A stretch of DNA of 64,000 nucleotides. It comes from a virus. The notes under the pieces are model-generated. The model ran no database searches and was not told the DNA's origin. It saw only the letters and a list, made by a program, of their open reading frames with translations. Below, piece after piece: positions 5,713 through 13,567 of the stretch; position 1 is the first letter of the stretch; each line of letters starts with the position of its first letter. The stretch covers positions 27,793-91,792 of IMG/VR virus record IMGVR_UViG_3300031965_000007. The stretch is one strand, 5' to 3'. A program made the position numbers and the translations under genes.

Positions 5713-6459
5713 ATGGCCAGACGCAAATATACGAAAGAGCTGTATGATCGCCTCGTGCAAGGGTTCAGGGAGGCCCCAAATAATTTTTCGCACGCCTCCC
5801 GGATCGCTGGATGTGATCGCAGAGCTGCTCAACGCGCATACGAACTTGGATGGCCTGCGCGATCATGGGCCATACCCATCAAAGACTACCTCGCTGCGGA
5901 GAAGGAGAGGATCCGTGCCGAGCGCCAAAAGCAGCTTGAAGCCCAGCGCGAGAGCGAGTCTGAGATGCGCGAGAAGGCCCAGACTGATGCAATCGCTGCC
6001 CAAACGCAAGAGGCAGCCGGTTCTGCCCAGGCACGCGCCAACGCGCTAGCTCTCGCAGGCGTTATCGGGCGCATCGCAGTGGCGTGCGTCCCACTCTCTG
6101 ATCGCATCGCAAAAGCACTCCGCGAAGACATCTCGATGACGCCGCAACAGGCGCTCAAACTCTTCAGCTCCATGGCCTACGTGGTGCGGCAAGGGAACGA
6201 GACACTGAAGCTCGCTCTCGAGATCGAGCGACTGCGGGTAGGCGAGCCCACATCGATCTTCAGGCTCCAGGCAGACGAGATGACGGTAGATGACGTCGCG
6301 GATTCCCTCTCGCACCTTCACCGAACGCTCCAGCGCGCTGTGGCGCGCGGCGAATCCATGGAAACTCTTGAGCAGGCGTTGGAGCACATTCCCGGCAACG
6401 ACGAGGATGAAGACGACGTTGAGGATGACGAAGAAGAGGACGCCGAGGAGCTGCACTAA
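5713..6459 (+). CDS. probable terminase small subunit
   Basis: N-terminal HTH-like segment, coiled coil, acidic tail; stop overlaps the terL start. Confidence 0.65.
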   Translation: MARRKYTKELYDRLVQGFREAPNNFSHASRIAGCDRRAAQRAYELGWPARSWAIPIKDYLAAEKERIRAERQKQLEAQRESESEMREKAQTDAIAAQTQEAAGSAQARANALALAGVIGRIAVACVPLSDRIAKALREDISMTPQQALKLFSSMAYVVRQGNETLKLALEIERLRVGEPTSIFRLQADEMTVDDVADSLSHLHRTLQRAVARGESMETLEQALEHIPGNDEDEDDVEDDEEEDAEELH

Positions 6460-7988
6460 TGCCCGCCGTGGATCGTGCAGAACTGCAGGCGATGCGCGAA
6501 GACCTTGCGCGCTGGGTGGTTTCGAATCCGCGTGTGGCCCGGAAGGTGGCGCGAGAGTACCGCGATTTGCGTATTCGCGTTGCGCGTATCGACCCGAATG
6601 AGTTCGTCGAGTTCGTGATCAAGGACGAGAAGACTGGCGGTGCTGTATACCAGGAACCGATCCACGAAGAGTTCCAGAGACTGGCAGACGAATACGACCG
6701 CTTGATCCTCTGGGCGCATGTCGAAGGTGGCAAGACCACGCAGCTCGGAATCGGGCGCACTCTGTGGCTCCTCGGCAGAGATCCGAACATGCGCATTGGC
6801 GTCGTCTCCAGCTCCGCCAGAAACCAGGCGTCGAAGATCACCGAGACGCTGAAAAACTACATCGAGAAGTCGCCGCAGCTTCACGCCGTTTTTCCACACC
6901 TGCGCCCTGGCCGAATGTGGACCTCGAGCGCGTTCACAGTCGACCGTACCGTGTTGTCGAAAGATCCGACGGTGCAGAGCACTTCACTCGAGACGTCGTC
7001 GCTGACTGGTTCGCGTATCGACCACTTTTTGATCGACGACATCCTGACGTTCGACAACACCCGCACGCAGGAGCAGCGAGAGCGCGTTCTGCAGTGGCTC
7101 ATGTCGTCGACGATCATGGGTCGTGTTGAAGCAGCCGGGCGCGTGATCTTCCTCGGCAACGCCTTCCACCCAGAAGACGCTATGCATAAGCTGGCGCAGA
7201 ATCTTGGGTGGCACTTCGCGAAGTTCCCTGTCTACGACGATCGAGGTGAGCCCGCATGGCCTGCCCGCTGGCCGCGAGAACGTATCGAGAAGCGCCGCAG
7301 CGAGATCCATCCAGACGAGTTCGCGCGGCAGCTCCTCTGCCTGGCGCGCGATGACTCCTCGGGCAGGTTCAAACGAGAGTGGATCCACAAGTGCATGGAC
7401 CGCGGCGTGGGGAAGAAGTTCGCGAATGCGCTCAATGCGCTGCCGCCTGGCTACGCGGTCTACACTGGCGTCGATCTTGCAGTAGGCAAGAAGAAGACGT
7501 CGGCCCTCACCTGCCTCTTTACGATCGTGGTGCACCCAAACGGTGACCGAGAGGTTGTGGCACCGCCGGATACTGGCCGATGGGCAGGTAACGAGATCGT
7601 CAGCCGCATCATTGACACCCACAACCGCTTCAACTCGATCGTGTATGTCGAGAACAACGGTGTGCAGCAGTACATCGTCGACTTCACGAAGGATCAGTCC
7701 GCTGTTCCGTGCAAGCCGCTCTTCACAGGCAAGAACAAGACGCACCCAGAGTTCGGCATCGAGGGCATGGCCACAGAGATGTCGAATGGCAAGTGGATCA
7801 TTCCGTCGTACGGCGACCATCGCTCCCACCCGGAGATCATGGCATGGGCAGACGAGCTGGTTTACTACGACCCTCGAGCCCACGCAGGCGACCGTTTGAT
7901 GGCAAGCTGGATCGCGCGGCAAGGAGCGAAGGAGTGGGAGAAGCGCCCGAAGATGCGGACAGGGCGTCTCGATCTCTTGGTGCGCTGA
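6459..7988 (+). CDS. terL: terminase large subunit
   Basis: Walker A-like HVEGGKTT, Walker B FLIDD, coupling motif LGN, nuclease YTGVDLA, VENN, and C-terminal GDRLMA. Confidence 0.93.
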   Translation: MPAVDRAELQAMREDLARWVVSNPRVARKVAREYRDLRIRVARIDPNEFVEFVIKDEKTGGAVYQEPIHEEFQRLADEYDRLILWAHVEGGKTTQLGIGRTLWLLGRDPNMRIGVVSSSARNQASKITETLKNYIEKSPQLHAVFPHLRPGRMWTSSAFTVDRTVLSKDPTVQSTSLETSSLTGSRIDHFLIDDILTFDNTRTQEQRERVLQWLMSSTIMGRVEAAGRVIFLGNAFHPEDAMHKLAQNLGWHFAKFPVYDDRGEPAWPARWPRERIEKRRSEIHPDEFARQLLCLARDDSSGRFKREWIHKCMDRGVGKKFANALNALPPGYAVYTGVDLAVGKKKTSALTCLFTIVVHPNGDREVVAPPDTGRWAGNEIVSRIIDTHNRFNSIVYVENNGVQQYIVDFTKDQSAVPCKPLFTGKNKTHPEFGIEGMATEMSNGKWIIPSYGDHRSHPEIMAWADELVYYDPRAHAGDRLMASWIARQGAKEWEKRPKMRTGRLDLLVR

Positions 7989-8210: not shown

Positions 8211-8426
8211 ATGCAAGTCGAGTGGACACGAGAAAGGCCTGCGTCACCTGGCCACTACTGGAAGTACGGCGTCAAGATCGAGCTTGTTCGCGTTGTGGCT
8301 GAGAAAGGGACCTTGCTCGGTCTTGACGGTGACGCCGTTGTGCCGATCAATGAGTACGCCAGTCACGTGCTGTGGGCGCCTGCGGTCCTGCCTGATCCGC
8401 CTGTTCGTAAGGAGGTGCCGCGATGA
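8211..8426 (+). CDS. small phage protein (WTxExPxxPGxYW family)
   Basis: AAGGAG RBS; WTRERPASPGHYW motif. Confidence 0.75.
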   Translation: MQVEWTRERPASPGHYWKYGVKIELVRVVAEKGTLLGLDGDAVVPINEYASHVLWAPAVLPDPPVRKEVPR

Positions 8427-8671
8427 TTTGGTCTGACGGCAAGAAGTACCGCTGTGACCAGTGCCAGAGTAGTTGGCCGCCGCGCCAGCGTTACCTCGTC
8501 TGGCCGATCCGTGTGTCGTGGCGACCTAGGAGTGGGCAGCAGAAGTTCTTCTCGGCGCATGGTGTAGAGATCGGCTCTGGCGTCATGCCAGGTCAGCGCG
8601 TTGAGGAGATCTACTTCAAGCGCGTGGTCAGGGTCGGCCCTGTCGTCGTTGTCCTTGGGGACGTAGGATGA
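8423..8671 (+). CDS. hypothetical protein
   Basis: AAGGAGG RBS; ATGA coupling. Confidence 0.65.
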   Translation: MIWSDGKKYRCDQCQSSWPPRQRYLVWPIRVSWRPRSGQQKFFSAHGVEIGSGVMPGQRVEEIYFKRVVRVGPVVVVLGDVG

Positions 8672-8820
8672 GGAAGCACTTGTGGAACGTCGCCTACGTT
8701 TACTTCGTAGGCGGTTCGATCGCTGTCTGGTACGTTGTTCAGGTTGCCATTGATCGCGAGACGGCAAAGAACGGAGCCGACTTCATCGAGAAGATCGCTC
8801 GATACGTGGGGCCGCTATGA
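8668..8820 (+). CDS. small single-TM membrane protein (50 aa)
   Basis: not in ORF track; ATGA-coupled at both ends; hydrophobic LWNVAYVYFVGGSIAVWYVVQVAI. Confidence 0.65.
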   Translation: MRKHLWNVAYVYFVGGSIAVWYVVQVAIDRETAKNGADFIEKIARYVGPL

Positions 8821-9281
8821 AAGTGGTCTGTTCTATGCCAGGCTGCCCGAACGAGAAGGCGGCAACATGCTGGATCGAGAAATGCGCGCGGTCGTTGTGC
8901 CAAGAGCACTCAATGTCGCATGGCGTCATGGTCGTTTGCCCAGAACACATCTTCCGGATCAGGCAGGCAGCGAGTGACAGTTTGCTACCACCAGAAGACG
9001 AGGAAGAAGACGATGCGAAGGTCGTGCAGAACTGGACGCCGCAGCAGAGACGTCGTCTGCACGCACGGCTCGACAACATGCTCGAGAGCGGCGACCGCAT
9101 TTTCTTGATCGCCTTAGGGCGGAACAAAGACCACACCGAGATCATGCTCGAACGCATGATTGGCAGGTTCCAGCGAACAACGCCGATCGAGATGCTAGGC
9201 GCGTTGACCCGCGCCTTGCACGACTACCAGAAAGACCTCGACGCGGATTCTGTTGTGGAGGAGATTCCGGATGAAGACTGA
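8817..9281 (+). CDS. Zn-finger (B-box-like) hypothetical protein
   Basis: CSMPGC...C...C...LCQEH...CPEH. Confidence 0.7.
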   Translation: MKVVCSMPGCPNEKAATCWIEKCARSLCQEHSMSHGVMVVCPEHIFRIRQAASDSLLPPEDEEEDDAKVVQNWTPQQRRRLHARLDNMLESGDRIFLIALGRNKDHTEIMLERMIGRFQRTTPIEMLGALTRALHDYQKDLDADSVVEEIPDED

Positions 9282-10371
9282 TCAGCAGATGGAGCCAACA
9301 CTTCTCGACGCACTTGAGACGGCGCTCGGGTTGATCTCGAACGCGTTCGAAGGTGACTGGGAGAAGGCGCCTCCCAACTGGCGCGCTGCGGCTGAGAGAT
9401 GGCGAGACGACTTCATTCGTATCTGTCGCAACGAACCGAACACGGATAGGCTCGGCATCTTGCCGCTGTTCTTCGAAGGTGGGTCTTCGCTCATCTGTGC
9501 CAGCATTGGTGCAGCACCTACCGGCATGCCAGAGAACATCGCTCTGCAGCATACCGACGACAACGGGAAGAAGACGATCACCTTCTTCAAGCCTGTCGAG
9601 ACGAAGACCCAGTATGGTGGTATTCGGCGTTTCCGCGTGGTGCGCGCAGAGCAGACCGGGCAGATACCTAGAATGGTGGCTCAAGGCGTGGTCTTCAGCG
9701 ATGGCGCTGTCTCGCTCCACTGGTGCTCGGAGGTTCGATCGACAACAGCCTACGACAGCCTAGAGAACTTCGAGAAGATCCACTTGCACGACGGTACGAA
9801 CCTGGAGTGGGAGGACAGGATCTGTTTTTCGTGCGGAGCCACCTTCTTTCGCGATCAACCAACCACCAACAACTGGTGCAGTGCGTGTGGTGCGGATGGC
9901 GGTAAGGATCCGTACTACGGAACACGCCCCGACCCAAGTCTCGGTAGGTGGTCGAAGGCGATCACTCTCAACACCGTGCTAGAACAGAAGGAGACCAGTA
10001 TGAGCAAACCGCGAGAGATCACGCAGCACCACACGAATGAAGCGAACAAGCGAATCAAGATTCTCGCCGACGAGCGTGACTCAAACAACGGCTGCACTTC
10101 TCACCGCTACGACATGCTCATCGACGACACAGGCGAGATTGTCGAGCTGCCGTTTCAGCACGGGCCGATCGCAGAGGTTGGCGTCAATGGCGTGACCAAC
10201 GAAGCCCTGCTCGCCATTCTCATCGATCGCATGGAAGGATTCCAGACCTCGCCATTCGCATGCCTGGAGAATGGCGAAGCTCTGATCGCTCTGCAAGACG
10301 CGCTCGCGTGGCTCGAGCGTCGCACCAAGGCGCGTGAAGCGCGAGGCGTAGAAGGGACGCACACGGTATGA
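9271..10371 (+). CDS. multidomain fusion with C-terminal Tad1-like (Acb2/Tad1 family) anti-defence sponge domain; internal start at 10000
   Basis: FQHGPIAEVGVNGVTNEALLAILIDRMEGFQTSPFACLEN..AL..L..AL.WL.RR...R..RGVEGT matches the Tad1 consensus as I recall it; internal AAGGAG-ATG at 10000. Confidence 0.82.
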   Translation: MKTDQQMEPTLLDALETALGLISNAFEGDWEKAPPNWRAAAERWRDDFIRICRNEPNTDRLGILPLFFEGGSSLICASIGAAPTGMPENIALQHTDDNGKKTITFFKPVETKTQYGGIRRFRVVRAEQTGQIPRMVAQGVVFSDGAVSLHWCSEVRSTTAYDSLENFEKIHLHDGTNLEWEDRICFSCGATFFRDQPTTNNWCSACGADGGKDPYYGTRPDPSLGRWSKAITLNTVLEQKETSMSKPREITQHHTNEANKRIKILADERDSNNGCTSHRYDMLIDDTGEIVELPFQHGPIAEVGVNGVTNEALLAILIDRMEGFQTSPFACLENGEALIALQDALAWLERRTKAREARGVEGTHTV

Positions 10372-10925
10372 CAGCCGTGCACCGATACTTCATCGACTTC
10401 GAGTTCGCAGAGAACGGAGAGACGATCAAGCCCATCTCCTTCGCCTGCGTGCCCGAGCACAGGTACGGTGAGGATCCCGATCCTGACTTCTACTGCGTCT
10501 TCTCAGACGGCTGGCGCCCGGAGGACTGCAACGACTTCGTGCAGAAGCACGTACTGCCGCAGCTTCGTGCAGACCACACGAACACGGTGCCGCGACAGTT
10601 TGCTGCGTCGTACCTCGAGTCTGTTCTCCTGGACGCAGCTAACCGGCATGGCGCGAAGCTCGAGTTCTGGGGCTATTACTGCGCGTACGACTGGGTTGCG
10701 CTCGCGCAGCTCTTCGGCGAGATGATCAGCCTACCGACCGGCTTTCCTCAGCACTGCATGGACCTGAAGCAGGAGATGGAGAGGTTGGGTCTCACGCGAT
10801 CTGACTTGCCTGCGCAGGACACAGGCAACCACAATGCGCTCCACGATGCCATGTGGGTACGGGAAGCGTTTCGAATGCTGCAGGATCGGTACTATCCCGA
10901 GCCGCCTGCAAAGGAGTTACGATGA
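10368..10925 (+). CDS. DEDDh 3'-5' exo(ribo)nuclease, RNase AS / Rv2179c-like
   Basis: YFIDFEF (ExoI), FWGYYCAYDWV (ExoII), HNALHDA (ExoIII). Confidence 0.85.
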   Translation: MTAVHRYFIDFEFAENGETIKPISFACVPEHRYGEDPDPDFYCVFSDGWRPEDCNDFVQKHVLPQLRADHTNTVPRQFAASYLESVLLDAANRHGAKLEFWGYYCAYDWVALAQLFGEMISLPTGFPQHCMDLKQEMERLGLTRSDLPAQDTGNHNALHDAMWVREAFRMLQDRYYPEPPAKELR

Positions 10926-11242
10926 CCAGCCATGATCGAAGCATGACACCGCAGGATCTACTCACGACGCACTTCGGGCGACCGGCAGAACCTGCAACAC
11001 CACTTCCTCTTGATCTAGGTCCAGAGTCGGTCGACAAAAGGCAAGAGGCGGTTGAGCTGACACTTCGCGCTGCGGCAGAGATGGTGGACGCGGAGCTGCA
11101 GAGCGTCATCGAGCTGATCGAGAAAACGACTGCGCACGCGAAGCGGCTCGAAGACTACCGAGTCTACCTGATCAAGACGCGCCGAGGGCTGCCGGCAATC
11201 GCTGCTGCCTACGCTGCTGCCTACGACGCGAGCAGCGACTGA
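10922..11242 (+). CDS. hypothetical coiled-coil protein
   Basis: AAGGAG RBS; ATGA overlap. Confidence 0.65.
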   Translation: MTSHDRSMTPQDLLTTHFGRPAEPATPLPLDLGPESVDKRQEAVELTLRAAAEMVDAELQSVIELIEKTTAHAKRLEDYRVYLIKTRRGLPAIAAAYAAAYDASSD

Positions 11243-11577
11243 CGAATCCCTCTTGCCAGGCGCAAACTGTTTGGGCTACCTTCTGCGTGTGAGCTTGTTG
11301 GTGGCGTTCCTGGTTGTCGCATGGCTGCTGCTTTCGGCGGAGGCGCTGAGGGTGAGCACACCTGCCACCAGTCTGTACGACCCTGGCTTGCCAGTCTCTG
11401 CGTCGCCAGTCTCTGCGTCGCCTGACCCTTGGCGACGCAGGGGCGCTGACCTGAGCGCTAGCGTACCTTCTTCCAGATACCGCTTTGCCGCAGTGCCCTT
11501 CTTTCGACCCACGCCGGACAACCGCGCGCGGGTTGCGCCCGCTTCGCAGTGCTGAAAATCCCCGTGTTGCCCCGCAG

Positions 11578-11610
11578 CCCCGCACGACCACAAATCGTGC
11601 GGGGTTTTTT
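11578..11610 (+). terminator. rho-independent terminator
   Basis: CCCCGCACGA-ccacaaa-TCGTGCGGGG then TTTTTT. Confidence 0.85.
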
Positions 11611-11630: not shown

Positions 11631-11822
11631 ATGCGCCACTGGATACGGAGCTGGCACGATGGTAAGACGCCTTGCGATCTCTCGCTACGAGATGCATCGT
11701 CGCTGATCGTTGCTGGCAGGGATCAACTACGCAAGGATACGCTGGATCACATCACGTGTGACACCTGCCGAGACGCCGCAGAGCGGTGTATGTTCTCGGT
11801 GGCGCCTTCGCCCAGAGAGTAG
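11631..11822 (+). CDS. small hypothetical protein (H...C...ITCDTC)
   Basis: GAGG RBS; Zn-binding-like motif. Confidence 0.5.
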   Translation: MRHWIRSWHDGKTPCDLSLRDASSLIVAGRDQLRKDTLDHITCDTCRDAAERCMFSVAPSPRE

Positions 11823-11878
11823 GCACTGCTGACTCACTTGTGGTACAACAGCCCGTCAGCAACCGCGGAACAGGACCT

Positions 11879-13567
11879 ATGAGTAGCGCGACTCACACGA
11901 ACATGGGCGCGGTGGGGTCGGCAGTGCCAGACCTTGCCGCAGGGATCGAAGGCGGATCGGGGCCTACCATGCCGATGACTGATCGGCAGCTAGAGCTGGA
12001 TCGGCTGTGGCGGTACTACCGCTGCGCCAACTACGAAGGGAGGAAGTACGACTGGAACGGCCAGCCTACTCTGCCGAAGATCGAGCACGAGGTCGTAGCA
12101 ACAGAAGGGTTCATGCCTGCCGGCTTCTACGACGCAGGTCAGACGGGCGACTTCCCGCTCAAGTTCCGCAGGCCGACTGCGCCGTTCTACCTAGCGAAAG
12201 TGATCGTGCGTCGCTTCACCTCCCTGCTCTTCAGCCAGAAGAAGCACCCGAAGATCGCAGCCGACGATCCGCTGACCGAGGACTGGCTGACGGGCTTTGC
12301 AGATGCCACGCGCTTGTGGGTGCAGATGGCGAAGGCACGCAACTACGGCGGAGCCATGGGCTCGTCTGGCCTCGGGTTCAAGATCGTCGAGTCTGTGCCG
12401 TACGTCGAGGTGCACGATCCTCGCTGGGTGAACGTCGACTTCGCTGACCGAGAAGAATTGATCGTGCGGTCCTTCGAGAAGAAGTACCAGTTTCCGAAGG
12501 AGGTGATCAACCCTCTCAACGGCGAGCGAGAGGAGCAGTGGTTCTGGTACCGTCGCGTGATCGACGAAGAACAGGACTCGGTTTGGAACGAAGTGCCTGT
12601 CGACAGCTCCACGTCAGAGGAGCCGCAGTGGGACGCGATCCCTCATCACACCGTGGCGCACAACTTCGGGTTCTGCCCAATCGTGTGGATACAGAACACA
12701 GCCATCGACGATGCAGTAGATGGTGATCCTGACTGCCACGGCATCTACGACACCATCGAAGCGATCGACGCTTTGTGGTCACAAGCCAATCGAGGCACCG
12801 TAGCGAACTGCGACCCTACCGTTGCGATCGTCAGCGACGCCGACTTTATGGGCATTCGCAAAGGCAGCGGCAACGCCTTGCAGGTCGAGAAGGGCGGCAG
12901 CGTCAACTACCTCGAGATGACTGGTGAGGGTGGCAAGGCTGCTGTCGAGCTAGCTGAAAAGCTTGAAGAGAAAGCACTGATCGTCGCGCGGTGCGTACTC
13001 GACACGAACTTCTCGGGGCCGGCCCGCACAGTCGAAGAGGTCGACAAGAACTACTCGAACATGATCGAGCAGTGCGACGAGCTTCGCGAGCAGTACGGCG
13101 AGCGAGGCGTCAAGCGCCTTCTCGCCATGGTGTTAAAGATCGCGCGTCAGTTCGACCGAACGTGGGTCGACACCACAGGCCCGCTGCCTACACTGGTACG
13201 CGGGCTGATCAAGCTCCCGAAGAAGCGCGAGACAGACGAAGCGACCGGTCAGTCTGTGTGGCTCCAGCGCCAGGTCGGTCTCGGAGAGCAGATCGAGCTG
13301 ACTTGGCCCAACTACTTCGAGCCGAGTCAAGAGGCGATCGGCGCTGCGGTCACAGCCGCTGGCCAAGCAAAGCAGTACGCGCTCGTAGATGCCGAGACGG
13401 CAACCAAGTTCGTTGCACCATTCTTCCAGATCGAAAACATCCGTGAGGTTGTTGAGAAGGCGAAGGCTGATCAGCAGTCTATGGCTGACGCATTCGCAGA
13501 GCAAGCAACGGCAGCGGGTCAGGGCGGTGTTCTGCCGCCACCTGTCGGCAAGAAGGCGTTTGGCTGA
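11879..13567 (+). CDS. portal protein
   Basis: ~560 aa, first large ORF after terL; HNFGFCPIVWIQN motif and IELTWPNYF C-terminal region typical of SPP1-like portals. Confidence 0.85.
   Translation: MSSATHTNMGAVGSAVPDLAAGIEGGSGPTMPMTDRQLELDRLWRYYRCANYEGRKYDWNGQPTLPKIEHEVVATEGFMPAGFYDAGQTGDFPLKFRRPTAPFYLAKVIVRRFTSLLFSQKKHPKIAADDPLTEDWLTGFADATRLWVQMAKARNYGGAMGSSGLGFKIVESVPYVEVHDPRWVNVDFADREELIVRSFEKKYQFPKEVINPLNGEREEQWFWYRRVIDEEQDSVWNEVPVDSSTSEEPQWDAIPHHTVAHNFGFCPIVWIQNTAIDDAVDGDPDCHGIYDTIEAIDALWSQANRGTVANCDPTVAIVSDADFMGIRKGSGNALQVEKGGSVNYLEMTGEGGKAAVELAEKLEEKALIVARCVLDTNFSGPARTVEEVDKNYSNMIEQCDELREQYGERGVKRLLAMVLKIARQFDRTWVDTTGPLPTLVRGLIKLPKKRETDEATGQSVWLQRQVGLGEQIELTWPNYFEPSQEAIGAAVTAAGQAKQYALVDAETATKFVAPFFQIENIREVVEKAKADQQSMADAFAEQATAAGQGGVLPPPVGKKAFG

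Follow-up and report, generated by a model that had tools for sequence, protein, structure and literature searches.

The closest described relatives of the gene analysed here are Acb5 and Tad1. According to the 2025 preprint describing it (10.1101/2025.07.12.664507), Acb5 is a phage enzyme of small size whose substrates 3'3'-cGAMP and cUA are cleaved to 2'3'-cyclic mononucleotides. Acb5A and Acb5B are stand-alone proteins of 72-77 aa modelled as homotetramers; the anti-CBASS activity of Acb5A requires R10, W38 and H61, and the enzyme is stated to have no structural homology to Acb1 or other immune-evasion phosphodiesterases (10.1101/2025.07.12.664507). The preprint also reports Acb4-Tad2 fusions, which counter CBASS as well as Thoeris.

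In crystals, Tad1 is a hexamer (10.1101/2023.11.15.567273). The pocket for gcADPR and 2'3'-cGAMP includes F82/N92 and R109/R113 of CbTad1 (Li et al., 10.1101/2023.11.15.567273), and mutating these residues abolishes binding of gcADPR and cGAMP. R88 and T95 of CmTad1 (R90 and T97 in CbTad1) bind cyclic trinucleotides and also hold the hexamer together (10.1101/2023.11.15.567273). The original prediction regarded Tad1 as normally a stand-alone protein. This is too strong, as many Tad1 proteins are extended at the N-terminus (phrog_23843, phrog_22140, phiKZ gp184). The last of these is located in the inner capsid and undergoes processing by the head protease.

The gene described below codes for a Trp-rich helical module, an Acb5 domain with a zinc ribbon, and a Tad1 domain. 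Like the Acb4-Tad2 and Sequestin (PF21825) fusions of the preprint, it has two anti-signalling modules in one polypeptide. Those fusions are sponge plus sponge, whereas here an enzyme is combined with a sponge and the families are different. phiKZ gp184 (8Y6V chain I) and the phrog_22140 and phrog_23843 proteins resemble the fusion in having an N-terminal extension followed by a Tad1-like C-terminal hairpin, but gp184 is a capsid protein with an unrelated N-terminal part and has no Acb5 domain.

Genome setting of the gene

The gene belongs to a phage with a GC content of about 59%, represented by a 91,792-bp IMG/VR virus record which CheckV rates as complete. The window, i.e. the whole 64,000-bp stretch of DNA that was analysed, corresponds to bases 27793-91792 of this record. 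The locus includes the following features (window coordinates):

6459-7988, large terminase gene (terL)
8817-9281, + strand, upstream gene of 154 aa, the stop of which overlaps the start of the fusion ORF by 11 nt
9257-9263, + strand, Shine-Dalgarno sequence GGAGGAG, 7 nt ahead of the start ATG 9271
9271-10371, + strand, fusion ORF, 366 aa plus stop
10368-10925, + strand, gene of an RNase AS / Rv2179c-like DEDD 3'-5' exoribonuclease, translationally coupled to the Acb5-Tad1 gene (ATGA)
11576-11606, + strand, strong terminator (12-bp GC-rich hairpin and T-run) at the end of the terL-portal accessory island
11786-13567, portal gene

The fusion ORF sits among small, tightly packed genes of the + strand reaching from terL to portal. 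An alternative TTG start at 9253 would add 6 aa to it but is not needed. In phages with 43-47% identical TerL the distance from terL to portal is 1.4-2.6 kb and no homologue of any island gene is found there; the terL-portal stretch therefore behaves as a variable accessory island.

The stop codon of the fusion ORF (TGA, 10369-10371) overlaps the ATG (10368) of the RNase AS-like gene. Assignment of the latter relies on a Pfam score of 30.6 bits (above the cut-off), a match to phrog_2259 and an NCBIfam RNase_AS match (7.9e-27) that is below the equivalog cut-off. It is speculative that its product might break down oligoadenylate-type signals or linear cleavage products. The 154-aa product of the upstream gene is rich in Cys and His at its N-terminus, contains an acidic stretch and matches no family. 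Four more small ORFs of the island (71, 82, 50 and 106 aa; 8211-8820 and 10922-11242, + strand) have no Pfam or PHROG match; AAGGAG-type ribosome sites precede three of them. In a related viral contig (L009:4220-6865) the TerL match is split, residues 21-92 and 93-505 lying about 1.2 kb apart, which suggests an insertion in terL (an intron, intein or homing element).

Domain composition of the fusion protein

The 366-aa ORF is organised as follows:

9301-9414, + strand, module A core, residues 11-48: helical hairpin rich in Trp, belonging to an undescribed family, with predicted helices at residues 8-24 and 35-52
9445-9597, + strand, linker, residues 59-109: residues 60-84 predicted disordered, residues 90-109 a beta-hairpin leading into the Acb5 domain
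9622-9816, + strand, Acb5 domain, residues 118-182 (PF26761, phrog_7499)
9823-9888, + strand, CxxC...CxxC zinc ribbon, residues 185-206: four Cys invariant in the closest free-standing homologues listed
9913-9969, + strand, conserved tail YYGTRPDPSLGRW..AITL, residues 215-233: common to free-standing Acb5-plus-Zn-ribbon proteins
9985-9987, + strand, CAG codon directly before the internal Shine-Dalgarno sequence: putative site of the former TAG stop of an acb5-like gene
9988-9993, + strand, internal Shine-Dalgarno sequence AAGGAG, 6 nt ahead of the in-frame ATG 10000: unpaired in the predicted RNA fold
10000-10368, + strand, Tad1 domain, residues 244-366 (123 aa): begins at the in-frame ATG 10000, hairpin at residues ~290-364 homologous to solved Tad1

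The ORF and every motif quoted in the original prediction are present in the translation: the helical module at residues 11-48, RRF...HW...IHLH at residues 118-173, CFSC and CSAC at residues 185-188 and 203-206, and the Tad1-like part from Met244. The gene is indeed a multi-module fusion, but the three small modules proposed ahead of Tad1 reduce to two families, as the second and the third of them are one unit. Accordingly, the matches of the N-terminal 243 aa in an exhaustive HMMER search fall into a module A set and a set of free-standing Acb5-plus-Zn-ribbon proteins. No homologues were found for the linker; the N-terminal 243 aa have no close relatives in IMG/VR and gave no match in a sequence search of the PDB. 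Neither NCBIfam nor PADLOC has a match for the fusion ORF. The full-length AF2 model is only moderate because the underlying alignment is partly misaligned.

The second module, which was not recognised in the earlier reading, is Acb5 (PF26761.1 is precomputed for the fusion protein). Residues 116-190 match structurally an ESM Atlas cluster that is 100% PF26761 'Acb5' (TM 0.76), and phrog_7499 matches the domain at 1.5e-10. BLASTP aligns residues 118-182 with the whole 72-aa Acb5A at 39% identity (E=1e-13), R125, W151 and H173 corresponding to R10, W38 and H61 of the enzyme. Acb5A and Acb5B stand alone, whereas this Acb5 domain is embedded in a larger protein and its GVSGTG loop, typical of the family, is shortened and altered.

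The fusion also differs from Acb5A/B in its additional C-terminal zinc ribbon and tail, a sub-family that exists in free-standing form too. HMMER found free-standing proteins of about 110-150 aa covering residues 113-235, including the zinc ribbon and the YYGTRP...GRW..ALTL tail; P0026 (136 aa, 52% identity) is the closest among the matches listed. Since these homologues span residues 113-235, the beta-domain, the ribbon and the tail constitute one evolutionary unit. Residues 98-243 were modelled by AF2 with a pLDDT of 89.5, and Foldseek found no match to this Acb5-plus-Zn-ribbon model in the PDB.

Several other occurrences of these parts may be mentioned. Two unrelated viral contigs (L014:2920-3738 and L041:2938-3678) have Acb5 in one open frame with Peptidase_S78_2, an XkdF-like phage protease. 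Streptomyces phage Comrade (L010) encodes a free-standing 72-aa Acb5 homologue (gene 86) two genes upstream of the terminase gene, with no Tad1 beside it; it is thus a second phage with Acb5 near packaging genes. In the 1975-aa protein P0039, the tail motif GKDPYYGTRPDPSLGRW (ORF residues 208-231) is matched at 15 separate places and thus acts as a repeat.

The C-terminal domain had been proposed to match Tad1, and it is a true homologue by sequence search of solved structures, fold search and pocket residues. The only matches among all solved structures are Tad1 proteins and phiKZ gp184 (phmmer: E=4.5e-20 for CmTad1 8KBB, E=5e-10 for CbTad1 7UAV). With the full-length AF2 model, significant Foldseek matches (E<=0.001) were confined to CmTad1 chains, with CbTad1 coming next, all with probability 1.00, over 74-88 columns and at 36-50% identity. 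phrog_2428 matches the ORF at 2.7e-34. PF24729.3 (Acb2/Tad1 hairpin) is precomputed for the fusion protein, and the local PF24729.2 model does not match it. In comparison with the described Tad1 proteins (CmTad1 8KBB-D; CbTad1 7UAV/7UAW/8SMD, 8KBE-H; SBSphiJ7 Tad1), the C-terminal hairpin shares about 50% identity with CmTad1, and the 123-aa domain is close to a whole Tad1 in size and has its own Shine-Dalgarno sequence and ATG. It differs in being covalently attached behind about 243 aa and in its divergent N-terminal sub-domain. Residues 246-290, which form this N-terminal half, can be aligned with the corresponding region of P0003 and P0008, are not reached by the alignments to solved structures and have a pLDDT of 43-62 in the model.

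F82, N92, R109 and R113 of CbTad1 align with F324, N334, R351 and R355 of the fusion, so that the F/N/R/R pocket for gcADPR and cyclic dinucleotides is present here as well. These residues are kept in 23-24 of 24 N-terminally extended Tad1 relatives. In contrast, the positions responsible for cyclic trinucleotide binding and hexamer contacts (R88 and T95 of CmTad1) are replaced by L332 and I339, and they vary among the same 24 relatives (R in 3, T in 4). Such substitutions occur in about 6% of Tad1 homologues (Li et al., 10.1101/2023.11.15.567273). The conserved pocket combined with replaced and freely varying trinucleotide positions indicates that residues 244-366 are a true Tad1 domain which keeps the dimer pocket and has probably lost the trinucleotide site.

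Another N-terminal module (..HKVV.A..I....GGY.V.Y.DGY.S.SP...FE.GY) is recurrently fused to Tad1, in P0003, P0011, P0013, P0017, P0022 and P0023; in P0233 it accompanies module A and an Acb2/Tad1 hairpin. Pfam contains no match for this other module.

Module A and its fusion partners

Module A has the family consensus LExAWGLIANAxxGDWxKAxPEWRxAAERWRD. Conservation is strong in its core of about 35 aa, in which Trp, Arg and Asp positions are invariant. The module stands alone in hundreds of mini-proteins; the 44-170-aa proteins listed by HMMER match only residues ~3-60 of the fusion. It belongs to no Pfam or PHROG family. An ESM Atlas search with a free module A protein gave no usable match, and a word-based search with residues 1-62 returned the fusion protein alone.

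A profile search for longer proteins found 123 of 171-568 aa carrying module A in any relative position. It is combined with a full Tad1 domain in P0006, with an Acb2/Tad1 hairpin (42 bits) in P0233, which has no match in a PDB sequence search, and with Tad3 (E=1e-21) in P0201. Tad3 is reported to be an inhibitor binding ThsB, the sensor of Thoeris. Other partners are NUDIX (P0182), MazG-like PRA-PH (P0212), the N-terminal domain of dGTP diphosphohydrolase (P0211, P0231), RNase T (P0280), AdoMet decarboxylase (P0225) and Clp_N (P0283). The RNase_T domain of P0280 has no detectable relationship to the RNase AS-like neighbour of the fusion gene. The fusions with Tad1, the Acb2/Tad1 hairpin, Tad3, Acb5 and nucleotide hydrolases are independent architectures.

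The original prediction had put forward all the fused modules as guilt-by-association candidates for new anti-defence domains. This holds for module A, which recurs with other anti-defence domains; the second module is the already described Acb5. In its distribution module A resembles Sequestin, a short helical and mostly stand-alone family that was found through the same pattern of recurrent fusion to sponges (10.1101/2025.07.12.664507). The two are not the same family: Pfam scans of P0001, P0047 and P0054 had no match to Sequestin, and a search of the complete phage genome with PF21825 gave no match at E<=1. Module A is a good candidate for a new domain.

The protein cluster of the fusion is a singleton, with one member from one contig, and no second Acb5-Tad1 fusion is present among the best 150 matches listed by HMMER (1.84 billion representatives). 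The surroundings (3-4 kb on each side) of 41 Acb5 loci contain no Tad1 or module A neighbours, and those of 49 module A loci contain no Tad1 or Acb5 neighbours with the exception of L067. At this locus a module A gene is followed by an out-of-frame Tad1-like C-terminal remnant. No Acb5-Tad1 fusion was found described in the available portions of the literature naming both Acb5 and Tad1, nor does this exact protein appear in the accessible tables of the Acb5 preprint (10.1101/2025.07.12.664507). The Acb5-Tad1 gene joins known parts in a new way, together with an undescribed, promising module.

Proposed function and origin of the fusion

We consider it probable that the gene codes for a composite counter-defence protein made of module A, Acb5 with its zinc ribbon and a Tad1 sponge. 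Its first part (residues 1-58) would be a small helical hairpin. In the second part (residues ~110-243: Acb5, zinc ribbon and tail), two copies would form a two-fold symmetric site by homology and would cut cyclic dinucleotides of the 3'3'-cGAMP type, which are CBASS signals. The third part (residues 244-366), a Tad1-type sponge, would by homology dimerise, its dimer pocket trapping gcADPR (the Thoeris signal) and/or cyclic dinucleotides; the capacity to bind cyclic trinucleotides has probably been lost.

A more far-reaching version can be offered only tentatively, and we would not bet on it: that module A is a new counter-defence family and a mark of anti-signalling proteins, serving as a signal-binding or oligomerising unit or as a binder of a host protein, and that the gene deliberately makes both a tethered enzyme-sponge and a free sponge.

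The location of the gene between terL and portal raises the question of whether the product is mainly virion-associated or packaged, the Tad1-like hairpin and/or module A serving assembly or capsid targeting. The match to phiKZ gp184 (8Y6V chain I, E=1.4e-12), which has a Tad1-like C-terminus and is located at the inner-capsid vertex, is consistent with such a role, as are several tblastn matches annotated as 'structural protein' and, in L014 and L041, the sharing of one frame by Acb5 and an XkdF-type protease domain. We regard it as unlikely, given that there is strict conservation of the ligand-pocket residues throughout the fused clade, this protein included, that the Acb5 catalytic residues are conserved too, that TerL relatives lack homologues of these genes between terL and portal, and that no evidence for capsid targeting or a protease site was found. 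Packaging and signal capture are compatible, so one does not exclude the other.

It is just as improbable that the fusion is real but only one of its halves is active, for example an Acb5 enzyme with a decayed Tad1 serving as a dimerisation handle, or the reverse. Such decay could account for the loss of the trinucleotide and hexamer residues in Tad1 and for the altered loop of Acb5, but both domains are full length, and the four residues of the gcADPR/cyclic dinucleotide pocket are intact together with the three tested Acb5 residues.

The original prediction also pointed to an internal start at the boundary of the Tad1 domain, and this signal is well defined: AAGGAG-N6-ATG is built like the real gene starts of this phage, and ATG 10000 lies exactly where the Tad1 domain begins according to its relatives. 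Of the 49 AAGGAG hexamers of the window, 23 have an ATG 3-9 nt downstream. The sense strand of the fusion ORF contains a single AGGAG, the one within AAGGAG 9988-9993, and among 44 sites combining AGGAG and a start with at least 50 aa downstream, only 10000 has hundreds of open codons upstream (264). Therefore, the internal start at the domain boundary is no chance match. The RNA around it is not unusually structured (z=+0.7), and both the Shine-Dalgarno sequence and the ATG are unpaired in the predicted fold.

Immediately before this signal, CAG at 9985-9987 is one base change away from TAG, and a stop at this position would give the acb5-like product a tail of a length fitting the free-standing Acb5-plus-Zn-ribbon homologues. 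We suppose that acb5-like and tad1 genes once lay side by side and that the stop codon of the first was lost ahead of the tad1 ribosome-binding site. Most simply, AAGGAG and ATG 10000 would be a former gene start left behind by this loss. As both the Shine-Dalgarno sequence and the ATG are intact, a free Tad1 of about 14 kDa may still be made beside the fusion of about 41 kDa.

The same one-base difference could have arisen as a base-call or assembly error which deleted the stop (e.g., TAG read as CAG at 9985) and thereby joined two genes, module A-Acb5 and Tad1, on a singleton known from a metagenome-derived viral contig and having a canonical SD-N6-ATG exactly at the junction; we rate this as very unlikely, since the open frame is homologous on both sides of the junction and comparable natural fusions of the same types of parts exist (module A-Tad1 in P0006 and many N-terminally extended Tad1 proteins), and a consensus error at exactly that base seems improbable by our estimate.

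If both halves of the composite counter-defence protein work, one gene destroys the dinucleotide signals of CBASS and sequesters signals of Thoeris and CBASS, being an enzyme-plus-sponge version of the sponge-plus-sponge fusions that block two systems. Moreover, the fusion is a natural test of what happens when a tetramer-building and a hexamer-building domain are placed in one chain, and it poses the question of whether the internal start resolves the conflict between tetramer and hexamer. The most useful lead is module A, a candidate module widespread in phages and having links to four anti-signalling families that are already known.
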